Below, one piece after another: positions 875 to 62,655 of a stretch of DNA of 64,000 bases (position 1 is its first letter; the number at the start of each line of letters is the position of its first letter). A program made the translations under genes and the position numbers. The notes below the pieces were generated by a model. It was not told where the DNA came from, ran no database searches, and saw nothing but the letters and a program-made list of their open reading frames with translations. Location of the stretch: NCBI GenBank assembly GCA_964234715.1, contig OZ174279.1; one strand, 5' to 3'. Source of the DNA: Podarcis melisellensis. Taxonomy: Eukaryota.

Positions 875-2883
875 GCTGTCAGGTAGATGCCCTGGACACT
901 TAGACAGTATGTTCCAGACAGAACTGCTCATTGGAAGGGTGCTGCGAGGTTGCTAAAGAATCACATTTTTATCAGCCACAGTATATAGTAATTGCATTAT
1001 ACCTGAGATACAAGCACTTCCCTGAGGGAAAACATTTGGCTTCCTTGCAACACATGAGCAACAACTGAACAGTTGTTGCGTTATAAACAGATGGCCTGGA
1101 AAAATTCCAAAGTGATGTCTGCAGTGTGCACTAGGGATTCTGGGATACATATCTGGGAATGCATACTTGTTTGAACTTCACATTTACTGTTGTTCAGCGT
1201 ACTGAAATTAGATTATCTAAAACCTAGGAAACCAGGGTGAGCACAAACCAGTTTGAAAATTAGTAATCACTAAGAAAGCAAACTGAAGTGTTAATAGTGA
1301 GTGGCAAATGAGTCGAAGGCAAGGTTGAATTCTTGATTTAAAAAAATAGTTTTGTAGGTGCAAAATGTAGATATCTGGCTTGATTATTCTAAATTATTCT
1401 TGAATCTTGTGTGAGTCACATCTGTTTAACCTAACAATACTACTGAAGTTATTAGCTCACAAAGCAATTACTAATCCACCTGCCTACATATACCTGTATC
1501 TGGCCTAAAATAAAAATTAAAAGAACCAGTCTTTGTAAAGATTCCCTATCTAGTTGCTTAGAGACAATTCTTATTTGCAGCTGGTCAAGCCTAGGTTGGT
1601 TCGTTGTTTTTGCATGGTCATGATAGTGTGTATTGTGATATTCTAGGATTATACTTGTGTTCCAGAAATAGGAAAATATTCTGCTGCATACAGCAATGTG
1701 TTGCACTGCTCTAGAATCTTTGCTCCAAAAATAAGACTCATTTACATACTACTACATTACCAGCAAGTGATCAGTTCCACAACTGTTCCCGCAATACAGT
1801 ATTAAGAAGCTGCTGTTTTAAAAAGAATTTATTAAATGTGAAAAACTTTGTTTCCTCAACCACAGATAGTTGTGTGACTGCACACTTCTACTAATGGACC
1901 TGGTAGTAGATATGTTTAATTCAGAGCAAAGTGTATTGAGCTTCAAGTAGAAATGTAAGAATCCCCAGAAGTGCTCCAGTATTGCATAACTTAAAGCAAT
2001 ATGCATTTGATCATTAATGTGGCATACAATAAAAGCAGCAGCACATCTCCTCTGAAGTCTAGACTGTGATTTGTAATCTCTCTCACAACGTGCCAGCTGA
2101 ATCTTTCAGCCAAACTATAATTGACTGAATAGAACTATGAAATTCTTTCTGCAAAAAGTGTCAGTCTTACAGAGATTTTTGAGACTAGATTGATTTTAAT
2201 CACTGAAAAAACAGATTGTGAATCACATTTTCCATGTTAATCCATCTATTTCTTGAACAAGCACGCATACCATTTGGCTGCTAAAACAAAATGTTATCTG
2301 TGTTTGTTTTTTGCAATGTAATAAAGTGGCCTAGCTATACTAAGCACTATGCAGCCCGCATGCCCTTTGCACTACAGAATTTGTATGTGTTTAAAGACAG
2401 AAAGCCTTCACAGTTGCTAATGGTTTTATTTGACTTTATTAATAAGGACAATAAGCAAGAGCACTTACTTGAAGACAGCATGCTAAGAACTATTCAGAAG
2501 CAAGGGTTGGTAGTTAATAGAACAGCACTTCTTCAAAAAATGGGAAGTCTGTATCCAGGGCCTTTGACTCACCGCATAAACCTGTAATCGCTTATTCAGT
2601 TGGGAATAAAGTCAATTGAACTCGATATAACTTATTTCTGAGTGCAAATGTATAGGATTGCACTGTAAATGTTAGGGATGTGCATTGGGTTCAGATGAAT
2701 CCTACAATGAAGTGGACTGCCTCATACAAATTTTATGTTTGCCAGAGGTAAAGCTCTTTCTACAAGGTGGCTTGCATTGAAGCAACAACTTTGCCTTAGA
2801 AACCTAGACAGTCGCTAAAAATAATATGGACAAGTAGCTGCTGAAAGCAATGGTATTGTTGCTAAGCTTACTGTAATGTCAAG

Positions 2884-3110
2884 CTGGTTCAGACCTGGCC
2901 TTGGAGCTGAATCAGACTTGGTCACCCTGATGGGTGACTTTTATCATGAGAGAAACATGGGAAGGAGTGTGACCTTGTTATTTCTGCTCAGTCTCTCAGT
3001 GGCTTTTGATAGTGGCTTTTGATAGTGTTGACCATGGTATTCTCCTGGACTGACTCAATTGGATGGTTATCCAAGGCATTGTATTACATTGGTTCCATCC
3101 TTAGTTTCAG
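2884..3110 (+). mobile_element. L2-type LINE reverse-transcriptase remnant
   Basis: Degenerate GFRPG..TE.AL and LL.LS.AFD.VDHGILL motifs. Confidence 0.65.
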
Positions 3111-3988
3111 GGCTCCTGGCACCTGTGTTAGAGAGTTCTGCATCTTTTCATAACAGTTAGCTGATTTCTGATTTTAAAATTTTGCATAGTTTTTATTGTA
3201 TGGTTTTATGGGTGACTGTTGTAAACTATTCTGATTTTTTTTAATGACTAGCAATATAGATATAGATAAATTGTTCCAATATAGTTTTTTATTTTATTTA
3301 GATGCATTAAAATTTGATAATTTTACTTAATAAAATACAGTTTGCTGTCAGATACAAACTGTTTGATAATATGCATAGCCTTATTACTCCAAATAAACCC
3401 CTAATTTACATTTTGTAAACTGGGGTGGATATGTTAAGCCCCTAGAGCTGTATTCTGCAGAAACTATGGCTCTCAGTGTGGATTTTTTAATGCTCTGTTA
3501 ATGAATTTTAAAGCAGTATTAATCAGGTTACTTCTTGACTTCCACACTCTTAATAGTGCTTTTCCGGGTCACACCTTTTTTTAATGTGAAACTATTATGC
3601 TGAAAAATTTTCTGGCATAAGGAATTAGAAGAGAGAGTGTAAATTAAATTGTGGAAAGTCAAACAACAGATGTCAGCTTTGAAGTCTGAGATTGTCCAAT
3701 AAAAATAAACTAGAAGAAAGGGAATCAAAATGTGGAATTAAACATCTGCTTGGCAGCTGTGGATATCTGTCTGTCTTAAATTCTAAGATGTAGCACATTG
3801 CACCTTCTATTTCTTTACATTTATATTCCATCCTATTTTGAAGGTTTACAATCAAACTATAAATCTCCATTTAACTGTCTCCATTGTTTCTTTCACCTTT
3901 TGCAATGCAGCCAACCCAACCATTATGAGCCCTGCCAGTCACAGTGTCCTTTTCCATTCTCATTCCAAAGCTTCTGTGATACTCAATA

Positions 3989-4327
3989 CAGTGGTACCTC
4001 GGGTTAAGAACTTAACCTGAGGTCCTATTTCTGGGTTAGTGGAGTTTGTAACCTGAAGTGTCTGTAACCTGAAGCGTCTGTAACCAGTGCTACCTCTGGT
4101 TACAAACTTAATTCATTCTGGAGGTCTGTTCTTAAGCTGAAACCCTTCTTACCCTGAGGCGCGCTGTCGCTAATAGGGTCTTCTGCGCGTGCGTGTGCCT
4201 CTGGTGCGCGATTTCTGTTCGCATCCTGGGGCAAAGTTCGCAACCAGGAGCAGCTACTTCCGGGTTAGTGGAGCTTGTAACCTGAAGCGTTTGTAACCAG
4301 AAGCGTCCGTAACTAGAGGTGCCACTG
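3989..4327. mobile_element. Tc1/mariner-pogo-type MITE, composite of two units
   Basis: CAGTGGTACCTC...GAGGTGCCACTG ends, TA flanks, second TIR-like start at 4085. Confidence 0.85.
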
Positions 4328-6243: not shown

Positions 6244-9200
6244 TACTTTGCTTTGTGCAGGTTTGTAACTGAAATAAGTCTGTGTGCTGTTTGTAATGTT
6301 TAATGAAAATAATAAATTTCTCTTTAAAAAAATCTTATTCCTAGCCCTATTTTCCACCCACCCACAGTGACTTCGAGTGGAAAAAATTCCACTGTTATAT
6401 TTTTCTGTGCAATATTTTCCATTCCTAAAAATACATTTTCCCCATAAAATTAATCATTAACATAATGAATCAAATAGCTGTTAGTTGTAATGTTGTAATT
6501 AACTTTTTCCAGATGATTGTCCCTAGGAAGTACTTGCACACAGGCCTACATACAATTTCAGTACCCTAACTTTTTCTTAAACTTTAACTAACATATCCTA
6601 ATAAAAACAAATTCCAAACAAATTGCTACCCAAGTGTGCTTTATTGATCCCCGCCCCCACTCAGATAAATTCAAATGCTTCTGGTTTTTTGTAAAATATT
6701 TAATATTTATGCAGCATGTAAAATGAACATTGAGTACTTTTGATTAAGGTTTTTTTACTCCCAAGTGACTTAAGTTTAAGTTGAGTAAAGTGAGCTAAAA
6801 GTTGACAATCAGGGTGCTATTAAAGAAGCAGGAAGCAAAGAAATATAGGAGAAAGTGAGAGCTGAGAGACAGGTTTTGCTTCCTCACCCACTCACTTGCA
6901 TGTACCTGTCTGCCTCTGTGGCTCAGGAGCAAAGTAGGTAGAGACAGAAGCAGACAGGCAAAAGGAAAAGGGATCCCTTTGTTTTCTGCTCACCCCCTGC
7001 CCCCACAATTCAAGGAAAAAGAACAGGGGCAGCTGATTGGGAGGGGGCAATAGGTTATACCTTTTGCTCCTTCCTGAGTTGCAGCTGCAAAGCTGAACCA
7101 TAGCTGGCCTGAATCACATATTATGAATATGATTTTGCAAGGCAGTTGTGCACTGAAGCTGCTGGGTGTTTAAGCAGCAGCTATGGCTATAGTACCTTAG
7201 TCTGGGACTGGCGCTCATTGCCAATGCAGTGACCGCAGATTAGAGCAGAGAAAGAAAAATCATTTTTGCCTGGACACTTCTATACTATACTGGCATGCCA
7301 AATATTTCAAAATTTTAAATATTTTTAGGATTACAGCCCTCAACCACTTCTAATGGATTACTCATATCAGTTTTGAATTAAATAACTGATGAATCAGTTA
7401 AATTTGTGTATGGGAAAAACATTTCTGAAGCATGAAACATGTTTACTTAATTTTTAGAGATGCACACATTTGTCCTTGTAGGCATAATCTTGGTAAAGGC
7501 ATTCCTCCTGTGGTTGAGAGAAGGGAGAATGCCTCTGAATAAGTTGATTGGCACCTGAGGTTTTTATAAGCAATGGAAATTAAAAAAAAATCCTGCTGTC
7601 CAGTTTGATTAGGGGCAAATAGTTAATCAATATGTTATACTGATTTTTTTTTAAAGAAAAAGCAAGTTCCAGCCATTGCTGTGACCCTGGCCAGTGGCCC
7701 ATCAATTGGGTTGTTATGAGAGATGTTTCCAGCATGTCAGACTGTAGATTAAAATTATTTTGCTATAGTGCTTTGCCTTCGCTTGAGAATTTGACATCTA
7801 ACCAAATGTACCAGGATATACTAGAAAACTTCTTTGTTCATATGCTTTGACTTGCAGTCTATCTTCTGTTCTAAAATCCAAATGTGCTACCCGAAATGCT
7901 CGTGTGTGTGTGTGTGTGTGTTTATTTCTGAAGGCTAAAATCTACTTGGTATTTGCAGTGTATAAGAATGGCATGGGAGGGGGGAATTTAACACTAACAT
8001 GATTTCCCCCCACATTAAGGTTAGAGTCCTATAACCACTTAACTGGGAGTAAGCACTGCTCAGTATTCAGTTCAATGGATTTTGCTTCTGAGTTAGGCAT
8101 AGGATTGCACTGTAAAGTAACTTTTATCAAGGAAATACTTGCTCAGTAGATAGTGTCAGGAGCTCGTCCTACACTCAAGTAGGACCCTGGTAGAGACACA
8201 TGCCTGGTAGAGACACATGTAAAAATACATTGCTGAAATGTTATACATGAGTGAGCAAAAAGGGATGAGAGGAATCAGCTTTACAGAAAGCCGTTGTATC
8301 ATTGCCATCCTGTTTCATTGGGTCATCTACTGTGTCTATCTGGGTGGCAGGGTTCGAAATTAGCACGGTGCCAGGCCTAAAGATCCTTGCCTAAAGACTA
8401 AAGATTCTTCATTTGTGAGCACCTCAAAAAGGCTGGATACCATTTTTTGTGCCTGGCTGACACTCAAGGATTACTGAAATGCATGTGCTTTGAAGCCTCG
8501 AAGTATATGTTAAGGATAGACAATATGTTAAGGAGTTTAACAATAAAGAGTAGAATGTTTTGAAAACTGTAAACATAATTTCTACTCAAATACGATATTA
8601 ACAATGTGTCATTTATGTGAATTGTGTATTAGTTTGTGCTTATCAAAATAATAAAAAGTGTTGCTGACCCCCCCCCCTCCCCATGGCAACTAGACATTCT
8701 GTTTTGGTGCCCACAGGCTCCTAGCTTTTCTACCCCAGTTTCTAACACTGCTGGGTAGTGATTATACTCCCATTTTTTTACCAGCCAATTGAGTTTTAGA
8801 TTGAAACGCGGACATGAGCACCTACTTCCCATCCAGGCAGGGGTTGGGTGTTCACTACCAGCTATTGCTCTGGAAAAATTCTGGGGACTGAGACTTCAAG
8901 TAAAGGACCCTGAGTGCCCTTGCTCCTATAAATGTGCATGGTCTACTTCTAAAGTGTGCTGTCCGATACCTATGGTTTTATAGAGTGGTAAATAAGTGAG
9001 TGTGATATGCAGCACGTGCTCATCAAGAATTCTGAGAGGGCCCACCTGAACTCTGTTTACCTTCCTCCTGCACATGCCCAAGCTCACATATGTGTGCTGG
9101 CAGTGTGTTCGGACATTAGGGGAAATAAAATCTGCACAAACATCCCATCTCTACCTCTGTCTGTTGTGAGAGAGTGAGAAGGGCTTCAATGGAGTGATAC

Positions 9201-9477
9201 TGAATGATGTCCAGCCACTTGGCAATGGAAATGCACTTGTGCAACTGGATTTCTGGTTTCTCTTCTTTCTCATCCAGCTCCCTGCACACACCCAAAATCT
9301 GCTCCAGACGATCCCCCAAGACTCAAGAGCAGATTTTGAAGTTGTGGGGAGTTGTAGTGGGGAAGAAAAGATGAAGGCCTGTTGTGTGAGTGGGTATCTG
9401 CTCATGATATGATGGACCTCATTCATGGTTATAAAATCAATTGGCATGTTTATAGAAGAGATACCTGAAATATCTCA

Positions 9478-9700
9478 TGGGAGCCAGTGTGATCTAGTAG
9501 TAGTGTGTTGGACCTGGGAGACCATGGCTTGAAATTCTACTCAGTCATGAAGCTCATGGAGTGACCTTGGACCAATCACAGTCTCTCAGTCTAACCTACC
9601 CTGCAGGGTTGTTGTGAGGATAAAATGAGGAGGGGAAAAACTTTGCATGACATCTTGACTTCCTTGGATGAAAAGTGGGATATAAATGTAATAAAGAAAC
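9478..9700 (+). mobile_element. Older Squam3/MIR-like SINE
   Basis: gggagccagtgtg head, gtgaccttgg...ctctcagtctaacctacc...gttgttgtgagga body, AATAAA tail. Confidence 0.65.
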
Positions 9701-14624: not shown

Positions 14625-14869
14625 CAGTGGTACCTCGGGTTAAGAACTTAATTTGTTCTGGAGGTCCATTCTTAACCTGAAACTGTTCTTAACCTGAAGC
14701 ACCACTTTAGCTAATGGGACCTCCTGCTGCCGCCGCGCCACTACCATTGTGCGATTTCTGTTCTCAACCTGAAGCAAAGTTCTTAACCCGAGGTACTATT
14801 TCTGGGTTAGCGGAGTCTGTAACCTGAAGCGTCTGTAACCTGAAGCGTCTTTAACCTGAGGTACCACTG
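14625..14869. mobile_element. Tc1/mariner-pogo-type MITE (245 bp)
   Basis: TIRs CAGTGGTACCTC(G/A)GGTTAA, TA TSD. Confidence 0.9.
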
Positions 14870-29984: not shown

Positions 29985-44995
<15,011 letters not shown>

Positions 44996-58100: not shown

Positions 58101-58556
58101 GCCCCCCACCCCCAGCCCTATAGACCCAGGAGAAATGTCAGGAAGAAACATTACAACACCCATTGTTCAAGTACAGTGGTACCTCTGGTTGAGAACAGGA
58201 TCCTTTCCGGAATCGTGTTCGCAACCTGAACAGAATGCAACCTGTGCAGATTGTGATTTGCCGCTTCTGCGCATGCGCGTGATGTCATTTTGAGTGTCTG
58301 CGCATGCGAGAGCGGCGACACCTGGAAGTAACTCATTCCATTACTTCTGGGTCGCCGCGGTACGTATCCTGAAAAAACGTAACCTGAACCTAACGTAACG
58401 AGGTATGACTGCAACGTAAGGGAGATTTGGGCCATTAGTTTCTCATCCATTTGCAAAGCTCTATTAGGCTGCAACCCTATGCTTACTTACCTGGCAGTAA
58501 GTCTCACTGAACTCAGTGAAGTTAACTTCTAAGTAAAACACACATGATTGCACTGT

Positions 58557-58599
<43 letters not shown>

Positions 58600-61500
58600 T
58601 TCAGGCAGCTATGCTTTGCTTGAATAGACCAACACCATACATTTCAAAAATATTCTGTCCTATGAAGAAATGTCATGCAGACGGATAAACGGTTTAAGGG
58701 ATGCATTATTCTAATGGTGAAAGAATATATTGAATTAAAACGTACTCTGGCTGGAGAACTCTTCTTGTTCTTCCTCCCAGCTTTCCGGCTGATTGGTGGA
58801 CATCGGAAGAAAATTAGGATCTGCAAATTAAGTTTCCCAAGTCAGTGATTCTCTTTTTGCAGTTCAGCACTGTGGGGGAGGGTATTCTTTTCATTTAGGT
58901 AGAGTCTGGATTCATAAAGCATCCCTAGCATTAATCTCTTGCTTCCAGACATGCTGGTGAATTAGAATTATAGCACCTAATATATAAATAAACATAATTA
59001 CCATCAGTATAGTACTTTAGGAGTATTCAGAGCACTTCACAATCATTCTGAGAATCCTTATGACAACCCTGTAAGGTTGGCCAATATTATCCCCATATTG
59101 CAGCAGTTGGGGCAGAATGAGACCAAAGCACATAGGCTAAAGTCAATGCAATAAAATAAAATAAAAATAGGAACTTTGCCAACTTCTCCAACCTCTGCCA
59201 ATCTCATCCCCCTACTCTACCAGAAGAAGACAAAAATGCAAAAAGATGTGTATCCAGGAAAAGTGTTTATGAAAATGCACATATTTTGTGGGAAAATCAC
59301 ATAAAAATACGCATTCTATCAGGAGTAACTGCTTGAAAACATGTATATTAGTCAACACAGCATAAAATGTGTTTATTAGGAGAAATTTGCACTAAATGCT
59401 GACAATTTTTATGATTTTCCTCAACAACAACACCACCAACAAAACTGAATTTGAGAAATGGAAAAAACCAAAATGGGTAATACTAGCCTGGTAAAGAGGA
59501 GACTGAGAGGAGATATGATAGCTATCTTCAAATATCTAAAGGGCTGCCACACGGAACATGGAGCAAGCTTGCTTTCTCCTGCCCTGGAGGGTAGGACTTG
59601 AACCAATGGCTTCGAGTTACAAGAAAGGAGATTGTGACTAAGCATTAGGAAGAACTTTTTGCTGGTAAGAGCTGTTTGACAGTGGAACAGACTCCTTTGG
59701 GAAGTAGCAGACTCTCCTTCCTCGGAGGTCTTTAAGCAGAGGCTGGATGGCCACCTGTCATGGATGATCTAGTTGAGATTCCTGCATAGCAGGGGGTTGG
59801 ACTAGATGACCCTTGGGGTCCCTTCCAATTTTATGATTCTCTGCCCATCCCTTTCCTTCTCCCATCTGAACAAGACTCACTGCTGTTACCTTTGCAGTGT
59901 AGCAAGGAGCAGACTGCACTGCAGTGACTTCCACATTGCAAGGGGGGTGACCCAAGGGGCCTTGGGATAAATAAGGTAAAAACCATCCAGGGGTCCTTTA
60001 CCTAAGTCCACTCAAAGGCGACTATGGGGCTGTGGCGCTCATCTCACTTTCAGGCCGAGGGAGCCAGCGTTTGTCCACAGACAGCTTCTCTGGGTCATGT
60101 GGCCAGCATGACTAAACCACTTCTGGCGCAACAGGACACCGTGATGGAAGCCAGAGCACACGGAAACACTATTTACCTTCCCGCCACAGTGGTACCTAAT
60201 TGTCTACATGGACTAGTGTGCTTTTGAATTGCTAGGTTGGCAGGAGCTGGGGCAGAGCAACAGGAGCTCACCCTGTTGCAGGGATTTGAACCGCTGACCT
60301 TCTGATCAGCAAGCCCAAGAGGCTCAGCGATTTAGACCACAACGCCACCCACATCCCAGGTCGACCGAACAAGCCTAGCGCATGCCCAGCACAAACTAGA
60401 TGCATCCTATAAAGTGCCCCAGTATATTTTATGAGATATCACTACAGCTGTGTCCAGCCTTAACATTTATTCACCTTAGGGCCTTGCTTACCGTGATGTT
60501 CACAGTTCCTGCCAAAGTAGCCCGGGCAGCACTTCCAATACAAAATGTTCTTGACTTTTTGTTTAACCTGGTAAATGGGCTTCAAAGCCGCTCTGTACCT
60601 AGAGGTAGAAAAGCAAACACTTGAGAGATAGCAGGCAAACAAAATTTCAGATGATGAAATTGGGTATACTGATACCCTGGCTTTTTAATAAAGAAATATG
60701 CCAACTGTCACAGAGCGTACAAGTTGGTAAATCACCCGCAATTCAGAATTTAACGCTTTATTAGCAAAAACACGATCACTACTGACTTAATGAGCACTGC
60801 GATTCTGTCCCTGTCAGTCTTCTTCCATGTAAACAGTTGCTGAGACTGAAACGCCTTGCCTTCCCATAGCCATCTAAGTCTCCTCCTCTCCAGGGCTTTC
60901 CCAAAGCAATTGGAGACTGTGCCTGCATGCAATCTGTTGCTGCTCTGCCCATTTCAGCCCTCTTCTGGTTCTAGGAGATGGGAGGAGGGGAGCTTGTCAC
61001 AGCAGGAGGGGGAGACACCCGTGACTCATCACTGCCTCTTGGCCTCCCCTCCTCCACCTCACCTGCGTCAGCTTCTACCTGCGATTCTCAACTTCTCTCT
61101 GCCACAGTCTCTCCCAGCTCACTAAGCCCTGTTGCCCCTCCAGCTTCCGACACCTCTTCCCAGTCTTCTCCCTCTGACCCCTCACCATTGTCCCACAACT
61201 TCTCCTCGGGCTCTGATCCTTCCTTTGGTAGTTCCCCAGCTGATTCCTCCTGCCATTCCTCTGCATCCAACCAGTCCATGACACCAACCTAGCCTATAGG
61301 GGGGAGGGGACTTCCATGAGAAACCTGGTAGAAAATGCCTCATCCTCATGGGAGCTGGCATGCAGCAAAGCATAGCATTCAGGAATGCACGCAAGAGGAG
61401 AGGTCCCACTTCTGACCTCTTTCCATCCTTCTTTCTGGATAACGATCTCTTTATGACTCATAGGAGTGTTGGGATATTTTTCTAGGAGCACTCTAGCAGC

Positions 61501-61839
61501 CTCTGCACATATAGGGGAAGTGCAAGTGGCTTGGGCTAAGAATCACATCCAGCTTGCAACCTGCCCTTTCTTCCCTCTAGTCATCTCTAGAAACAAATAA
61601 CCTGGGCACTAAAGCAATGCGAGGGGAACAGGGGTCTCCCAATTCCAGGATATTCATAGTGCAGGCAAGGCCTTAAAGTTATCACAAAACCCCATTAAAG
61701 AGGCTGTCAGACTTACATGATCTTCTGGCAATCTGGAGTCCCATTTGGACATGGTTGCTGAGACTTAATTACATATTTCTCTGTCTTGCAAACAGCAATA
61801 TACGTGACCAGGCGGGACTGCGGAGACGAGCACCAGTTC
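51732..61839 (-). CDS. MMRN2: Multimerin-2, 5'-partial spliced CDS (6 exons; signal-peptide exon not found in window)
   Basis: Exons on minus: 61839-61717, 60598-60492, 58820-58746, 57958-57806, 56294-54420, 52111-51732. GT-AG introns with compatible phases. EMI domain, long coiled coil and C1q domain ending GFLIFKT. Lies tail-to-tail with BMPR1A as in mammals. Confidence 0.95.
54011..54235. mobile_element. Tc1/mariner-pogo-type MITE (same subfamily as 50148)
   Basis: CAGTGGGACCTTGGTTG...CAACCTAGGTACCACTG. Confidence 0.85.
54420..56294 (-). CDS. MMRN2: MMRN2 large coiled-coil exon (1875 nt)
   Basis: Covers most of the 632-aa ORF 54355-56253. tttcag acceptor, gtacgt donor. [22 protein letters not shown] resembles MMRN2. 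Confidence 0.95.
56480..56930 (+). mobile_element. L2-type LINE 3' fragment
   Basis: FKVLVWT.K and [17 protein letters not shown]2 C-terminal motifs; A/T-rich tail. Confidence 0.7.
57806..57958 (-). CDS. MMRN2: MMRN2 exon 5 ([22 protein letters not shown]...HNQS)
   Basis: 153 nt, phase 1-1, atcag acceptor, gtgaga donor. Confidence 0.88.
58174..58411. mobile_element. Tc1/mariner-pogo-type MITE in MMRN2 intron 4
   Basis: CAGTGGTACCTC...GAGGTATGACTG. Confidence 0.85.
58559..58599. repeat. (AAT)n microsatellite
   Basis: Direct reading. Confidence 0.95.
58746..58820 (-). CDS. MMRN2: MMRN2 exon 4 (acidic linker [25 protein letters not shown])
   Basis: 75 nt, tttgcag acceptor, gtacgt donor, phase 1-1, open frame. 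Confidence 0.8.
59483..59840 (+). mobile_element. CR1 LINE 3' fragment
   Basis: [23 protein letters not shown]2 C-terminus; 3' UTR gggttggactagatgacc...ttccaa...tatgattct. Confidence 0.85.
59973..60357 (-). mobile_element. Sauria SINE, older copy
   Basis: Reverse complement is homologous to the copy at 5044; aaggtaaa tail remnant. Confidence 0.85.
60492..60598 (-). CDS. MMRN2: MMRN2 exon 3 (EMI C-half: [35 protein letters not shown])
   Basis: 107 nt, WxCCPGY motif, gtaagc donor. Confidence 0.95.
60706..61283 (-). mobile_element. Solo LTR (578 bp) in MMRN2 intron 2
   Basis: TGTCA...TGACA inverted termini, perfect 5-bp TSD CCAAC (60701-60705 and 61284-61288), AATAAA on minus at 60762-60757. 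Confidence 0.85.
61717..61839 (-). CDS. MMRN2: MMRN2 exon 2 (EMI domain N-half: [40 protein letters not shown])
   Basis: 123 nt, cctag acceptor, gtaagt donor, EMI NWC motif. Confidence 0.95.
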
Positions 61840-61911: not shown

Positions 61912-62655
61912 GTTTTTATTAAAGATTGTATTGTGCAACAAACAAAGGAAAGTACAGTCATACCTCATGTTACGTTTGCTTCAGATTGTGCATTTTCAGG
62001 TTGCATCCCATGGCGACCTGGAAGTACCGGAAAGGGTTACTTCTGGGTTTCGCCACTCGCGCATGCACAGAGGCGCAAAATGATGTCATGCACATGCGCA
62101 AAAGCCCCGAATCGTGACCCGCAGGTGCGGGTTGCATTCTGTTCAGGTTGTGAATGGGCCTCCGGAACAGATCCCATTCGCAACCAGAGGTACCACTGTA
62201 CATATAGCATCTTCACTTTCAATTCATAGAGTCTCGTTCACAATTTGTTTACATTTGGTATGAGACACTGTTGTCATATAATTGGGGGTGGGGGAAGAGG
62301 AGGGGGGAGAGTGATGGGGGATATTGATCTTCCATTCTATTGCGTAGTGCTTGTGCAGGGTTTGTGTGTCAGCATCACAAGGTTGGTCACAATGTTGGCA
62401 TTGTGAGAGATTGGAGGCTCCATTTGGCTTGGTTGGATGCCTCTGGTTGATTGCAGTGTGGTTTGCTTGAATGTGGAGTGAGGGGAGATTGTTGAGTCAG
62501 ATTAACCATCCTGAGTCATATGCTGGGGTGGGGGAGTAGGTCATTGTGTTGTTGTGCTGTATTCGTAATAAAGGCTGGCCACACCGGGCTGAAGGCATCC
62601 TCCTTTGCTTGTCCCCTTGCTAGTTTAAATGTGTTGGTTATCATTTCTAGTAGGT
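61912..62655 (-). mobile_element. Probable 5'-truncated L1/Tx1-like LINE, interrupted by a MITE
   Basis: Minus-strand LLEMITNTFKLARG...FSPVWPAFI resembles the non-mammalian L1 ORF2 C-terminus; AATAAAAA at 61920-61913. Confidence 0.5.
61955..62198. mobile_element. Tc1/mariner-pogo-type MITE in MMRN2 intron 1 (inverted relative to 58174 copy)
   Basis: CAGTCATACCTC...GAGGTACCACTG, TA TSD. Confidence 0.88.

Follow-up and report, generated by a model that had tools for sequence, protein, structure and literature searches.

Coding frames inside the U3 part of a long terminal repeat (LTR) include sag of MMTV, nef of HIV and SIV and bel2 of the foamy viruses, and they are usable only from the 3′ copy of the LTR. 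Because the LTRs of vertebrates are regarded as non-coding and masked ahead of gene prediction, a protein encoded inside a high-copy lizard LTR would be missed systematically. In the foamy-like endogenous retrovirus ERV-Spuma-Spu of the tuatara, whose 935-nt LTR starts at nt 9110, an ORF (nt 9114-9498) opens at base 5 of the LTR; the section of the source that treats this ORF judges it a likely artefact (PMC6669660). Extra ORFs are also described for Ty3/Gypsy elements, those of Retand (TRP28) being antisense and placed between pol and the 3′ LTR according to the relevant part of PMC11963269, and CERV of Cer1 is made from a spliced mRNA, as stated in part of PMC10309623. The passages of PMC4585706 covered here contain no description of an LTR ORF for Xenopus 1a11/olt/xretpos. 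Here we describe an accessory frame, likely coding and presumably within U3, that belongs to an abundant lizard LTR family and has no named protein relatives. No description of the frame of this family was found in the literature covered, most subscription journals and Repbase entries lying outside that coverage.

In the window, by which we mean the whole 64,000-nt stretch of DNA analysed, a 578-bp solo LTR (TGTCA...TGACA) lies on the minus strand at 61283-60706. Its termini form a perfect 5-bp inverted repeat, TGTCA/TGACA, giving the TG...CA ends of an LTR. The target-site duplication is an exact 5-bp GTTGG, and duplications of 3, 4, 6, 7 or 8 bp do not match. GTTGG directly flanks the single LTR, the internal region is absent and the window holds no second copy of the LTR. 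An AATAAA signal is found at LTR base 522, 51 nt from the 3′ end. The LTR sits in sense orientation within an intron (60599-61716), 433 bp behind the upstream exon and about 105 bp ahead of the next, and these two exons jointly form an EMI domain (Pfam). Further 3′ the host gene has a long exon and then a C1q domain; we take it to be an MMRN2-like gene. The parts of the locus are as follows.

61717..61839, minus strand: host exon preceding the LTR, which encodes the beginning of the EMI domain (Pfam).
61284..61288, minus strand: target-site duplication, upstream copy GTTGG (exact match).
60706..61283, minus strand: solo LTR of 578 bp, member of a high-copy family (termini, duplication, contig depth, loose contig ends at 61283).
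60757..60762, minus strand: AATAAA polyadenylation signal (sequence).
60706..60873, minus strand: non-coding 3′ part of the LTR, presumed promoter/R/U5, much less common to the family copies (contig depth).
60701..60705, minus strand: target-site duplication, downstream copy GTTGG (exact match).
60492..60598, minus strand: host exon following the LTR, which encodes the remainder of the EMI domain (Pfam; a run X17 contig spans exactly this exon).

Target duplications of 5 bp are compatible with Gypsy, Copia, BEL and class III ERV elements; in combination with the 3′-proximal AATAAA the duplication fits Gypsy, although the element may also be a class III ERV. The Gypsy elements Sushi and rGmr1 likewise have AATAAA near the 3′ end; their U3, however, is T-rich, whereas the one described here is purine-rich.

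The reading frame spans LTR bases 5-410, with its ATG at LTR base 5 (61279), and is broken twice in this copy.

61091..61279, minus strand: intact start of the frame, 63 codons with 22 Asp/Glu and 4 Trp, no fold predicted (ORF reading, structure prediction).
61088..61090, minus strand: in-frame TGA, the first break; a sense codon in 7/7 natural models that span the position.
60980..61087, minus strand: 36 further codons, acidic and then a Ser/Pro hinge, with a frame change (the second break) at the end, near 60980 (reading frame; contig ends at 60984).
60874..60978, minus strand: tail of 34 residues and TAG stop (60876-60874), with a basic start, SPRTRR, then RHSLQL and an acidic end (reading frame).

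The initial annotation had described an ATG at the fifth base of the LTR, 63 codons, a TGA at 61090-61088, 36 more codons, a frameshift and a TAG at 60876-60874, and we found all of these as described; its reading of the tail up to the TAG was correct but omitted the last nine residues (WESPGEEET). The ATG has G at both -3 and +4. Among the first 63 residues, 22 are Asp or Glu and 9 are Trp or Leu, and no fold is predicted for them (pTM 0.16, from a five-sequence alignment). Such an acidic-plus-aromatic composition is the pattern of acidic activation domains.

Like MMTV sag, HIV/SIV nef and foamy-virus bel2, this frame would code inside the U3 part of its LTR. No sequence similarity to any of the three was found, however, and the present frame is short, acidic, predicted to be disordered and apparently contained wholly within the LTR from base 5 onwards. 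The tuatara ORF, the nearest case among reptiles, is, as here, part of a reptile LTR, starts at base 5, is of similar length (about 128 codons) and has no known relatives; three motifs of the present LTR are nevertheless absent from one supplement file, and the two families are likely unrelated. The start at base 5 in both LTRs may reflect the TGT-x-ATG terminus or a recurring design. Retand and Cer1 each have an extra gene, neither gag nor pol, with a likely regulatory role, as we propose below for this frame, which differs from theirs in being sense, inside the LTR and part of a vertebrate element.

It had been cautioned in the initial annotation that purine-rich DNA also yields Glu-rich frames by chance. 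In its openness the frame does not exceed chance: an open frame with at most one stop was obtained in 1167 of 5000 dinucleotide shuffles, and openness alone therefore means little. It does exceed chance in its phased acidity, in that 100 codons contain 30 Asp and Glu residues, against 17.1 ± 1.8 in the shuffles, none of which (0/5000) reached that level. Nor was it reached by any of 4190 other 300-nt stretches of the window (maximum 24, in a genuine host exon), although with just two equally purine-rich stretches among them this is a weak control, and taken alone it does not exclude triplet slippage in G/A-rich DNA as the source of the acidity. These counts bear on a reading of the frame as a by-product, in which the LTR would have retained its G/A-rich 5′ part as DNA, as enhancer or promoter, its Glu runs would stem from triplet slippage and its ATG from the TGTCA-TG terminus, and the 3′ part would have been swapped between subfamilies by recombination. 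We consider this unlikely; the ease with which shuffles yield open frames speaks for it, and the confinement of the acidity to a single phase against it.

The family was surveyed by aligning contigs of 4 of the 24 listed runs to 60400-61600 at 80% identity; three of these are DNA runs, and the fourth, X17, is RNA by our guess, for which reason its family-like contigs do not enter as evidence of expression. Relative to the single-copy flank, summed depth within the frame had medians of 380-595× and peaks of 2500-3800×; since such depth is not a copy number, we state no more than that the copies number in the hundreds to thousands. The non-coding 3′ part of the LTR stood at 17-33× flank, so that the ratio of frame to non-coding depth was 22, 17 and 19 in the three DNA runs; even the lowest bin of the frame stood at 7-10× the highest non-coding bin. 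This decrease is located some 25 nt beyond the TAG stop of the frame. Several contigs align both to the last part of the frame and to the region around AATAAA and leave the spacer between them unmatched, with joints from 60773-60777, which indicates that subfamilies have the frame and the poly(A) signal in common but not the sequence between these. According to part of PMC3601003, conservation of U3 is ordinarily poor. A frame that is better kept than the rest is the reverse of this and points to coding constraint. The alternative explanation for the depth pattern is recombination that swaps the 3′ part, as supposed if the frame is a by-product; a boundary of conservation at the stop, and an AATAAA common across a diverged spacer, argue against that reading.

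That copies are dispersed is seen behind 61283, where 101-106 contigs of each DNA run have unrelated flanks. At 60984, the site of the frameshift, 91-112 contigs per DNA run stop aligning, and this copy therefore differs there from many of its relatives. The commonest indel among those listed inside the frame is of 3 nt (23-26 contigs per DNA run), and a 1-nt indel at 61049 is listed too (4-7 contigs). The lead of 3-nt indels speaks for a coding frame; against this stand the listed 1-nt indels and the fact that slippage in GAG/GAA runs can likewise produce changes of three bases. Third codon positions hold 3 of the 17 listed difference sites inside the frame (p=0.13), a count that leaves aside 107 other difference rows.

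A scan of 1.84 billion protein representatives, with follow-up searches and cluster look-ups, led to 13 lacertid proteins from Podarcis lilfordi, P. raffonei, P. muralis and Zootoca vivipara. The full HMMER scan gave three matches, of which one was real; the other two, P0002 and P0004, were dropped as unrelated repeat proteins that match by composition. All 13 lacertid proteins are gene models of host SCAN zinc-finger genes, and 10 of the 13 contain the frame (P0003, P0014-P0021, P0023). In these 10 models the reading continues in frame beyond the splice point from which KRAB is normally reached, runs on for about 15 codons and meets the LTR exactly at the ATG. They represent one inherited LTR insertion, that is, one independent lineage, were picked by gene callers that favour open frames, and differ in their ends. 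We rejected a Gmr1-like Gypsy gag as the source of the SCAN domains, the proteins belonging to host SCAN-KRAB-zinc-finger genes, of which P0020 and P0024 show the normal splice into KRAB at the point where the models read on. In the read-through models KRAB and the zinc fingers are replaced by the acidic domain, and the read-through may be either an exonised isoform that lacks the repressor domain or an artefact of annotation.

Over the first 63 codons, four lacertid models are 57-70% identical to the window. The register between the window frame and the models is kept across 2-4 gaps at about 60% amino-acid identity, and a register so held between subfamilies speaks against a by-product. At the position of the TGA, each of the seven models that span it (one lineage) has a sense codon that is never Arg, and two Zootoca models pass from the acidic frame via a Pro hinge into the tail frame (8/17 identities, not significant by BLASTP); the stop and the frameshift are therefore likely to be damage to this copy. 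The earlier proposals that both breaks are decay of this copy, and that an acidic frame from LTR base 5 is a family-wide property of this lizard solo LTR, are thus supported, the first by the lacertid models together with the contig ends at 60984 and the second by the models together with the depth pattern. The same seven models, all of one lineage, give no support to the derivation of the TGA from an Arg codon.

A stand-alone intact protein was found neither by a profile search of proteins of 194-2000 aa, among the best 8000 candidates, nor by single queries at 110-194 aa, and a search with the read-through protein gave 0 matches among 24 candidates at E ≤ 0.01. Metagenome and viral collections returned 598 and 19 pattern matches, none of which was confirmed, and 0 exact DNA matches; seven viral matches of 17-23 nt were taken as chance. 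That the database searches yielded no free-standing protein speaks for a by-product, as does the tuatara ORF that likewise runs from the fifth LTR base and is judged a likely artefact in part of its source (PMC6669660).

The lacertid models enter the frame from upstream without a break, as they would if the frame were the C-terminal end of a longer gene that runs from the internal region through the polypurine tract into U3 and does not start at the base-5 ATG. Indeed, nef follows this course, and a purine-only tract cannot hold a stop codon. We regard such a gene as very improbable, given that the ATG lies in a strong initiation context and that no fusion to Gag, Pol or Env occurs among 6 matches from the best 8000 candidates of 194-2000 aa, the latter being a weak test.

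We hypothesize, with a probability of roughly 0.75, that the frame is a real gene of the family and was under coding selection while the family replicated. If so, we put at about even the chance that the 3′ LTR copy was the source of the protein, through an RNA that was spliced or started internally; our reason is the position of the frame, ahead of where transcription presumably starts. More tentatively, and with the odds somewhat against us, we suggest that the product was a small accessory protein, predicted to be disordered, that served as a nuclear transactivator of the element's own LTR. On this model the frame (bases 5-410), being upstream of the poly(A) signal and presumably of the transcription start, would be transcribed from the 3′ LTR only, and would be translated from spliced or internally started RNA in the manner of MMTV sag or HIV nef. 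An acidic activation domain would be formed by the N-terminal part, rich in Asp/Glu and Trp, and the basic start of the tail, SPRTRR, could provide a nuclear import signal or a chromatin/DNA tether. In the present solo copy the gene is dead, a remnant left after LTR-LTR recombination that would be removed from the host transcript by splicing; the downstream host exon is covered exactly by an X17 contig (RNA by guess), which fits normal splicing.

The same basic SPRTRR stretch, in a protein predicted to be disordered, could also mean that the protein acts on RNA, its Arg-rich tail binding the genomic RNA of the element so that this is packaged or, as with CERV of Cer1, exported. An LTR retrotransposon with an export factor of the accessory kind, made by splicing, is thus known (described in part of PMC10309623); acidic residues nevertheless dominate the present protein, and no similarity to CERV was found in the database searches, and we hold an RNA role to be quite improbable.

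The initial annotation had instead likened the tail to an HMGN nucleosome anchor, RRSxRL. According to parts of PMC12487698 and PMC13347269, the acidic patch of the nucleosome is bound by HMGN via RRSARLSA, by tardigrade Dsup via RRSSRLTS and by yeast Dot5 via RRSARIAT, with three key arginines. RRSxRL is absent from our sequence as it stands, where the position reads RHSLQL and holds one of the three arginines called essential in those papers. A tail of the HMGN/Dsup type would place an arginine anchor on the H2A-H2B acidic patch, and would loosen or shield nucleosomes on the element or compete with silencing factors. The S-x-x-L spacing and one Arg are in place, two natural copies give an indirect sign of Arg at one more position of the motif, and the motif is known to work in unrelated proteins, Dsup and yeast Dot5 (PMC12487698, PMC13347269, both in part). 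Set against this, two of the three essential arginines are missing from this copy, and RRSxR occurs in 0 of the 13 related lacertid proteins, none of which covers the motif position in the frame. Pfam, HMGN model included, gave 0 families at E ≤ 1 for the read-through and 0 at E ≤ 0.1 for the two pieces. It had further been proposed that six tail positions are decayed Arg codons. Two of these gain support, one directly in Zootoca and the other indirectly, from residues forced in the neighbouring frame and from a single contig seen in two runs and read by eye; two have other residues in Zootoca, and the remaining two, among them the second Arg of the motif, lie outside the coverage of natural copies. 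On this evidence we think such an anchor on the acidic patch rather unlikely.

The frame product may resemble HMGN, Dsup and Dot5 in being a disordered, charged protein with an acidic region and possibly a short Arg motif. It differs from them in that the motif is absent in this copy, there is no Pfam match, the acidic part is N-terminal to the putative motif and the protein would be encoded by an element. We also hold as rather doubtful the broader scheme in which the family encodes a disordered protein with an acidic activation domain and an HMGN/Dsup-type arginine anchor, a binder of the acidic patch that would open the element's own chromatin, and in which SCAN genes may have captured the acidic part as an alternative C-terminus in place of KRAB.

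Should the frame be a real gene, each new solo LTR would spread a start codon and an acidic domain that are open to capture by the host, as the SCAN zinc-finger models suggest. Should the tail be an arginine anchor, the retroelement would make use of the nucleosome surface that is used by HMGN, Dsup and viral tethers, and would have a route to escape silencing.

At the locus itself, the LTR runs in the direction of the host EMI/C1q gene and puts its AATAAA about 160 bp upstream of a splice acceptor, and premature polyadenylation of the host gene is therefore possible. Contigs from organisms A and E bridge both LTR junctions, and over 623 flank bases 17 differences are listed (2.7%), from which it follows that the insertion predates the A/E split and has decayed since. 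Run X4 carries the same species label as X1, yet it has several flank and LTR variants in common with organism E (60400-60751, 61258-61600), which suggests deep structure or introgression within the species label.

A search of Rfam gave 0 matches. A short interspersed repeat is present in two related copies of opposite orientation, at 58171-58399 and 61950-62201, whose 72-nt arms are 85% complementary, and similar 16-bp tandem units are found at 4047-4317 and 14815-14859. On the strand opposite to the EMI/C1q gene, a protein-kinase exon (Pfam) at 41180-41530 (plus strand) belongs to a BMP type I receptor-like gene, presumably BMPR1A by its synteny with MMRN2.
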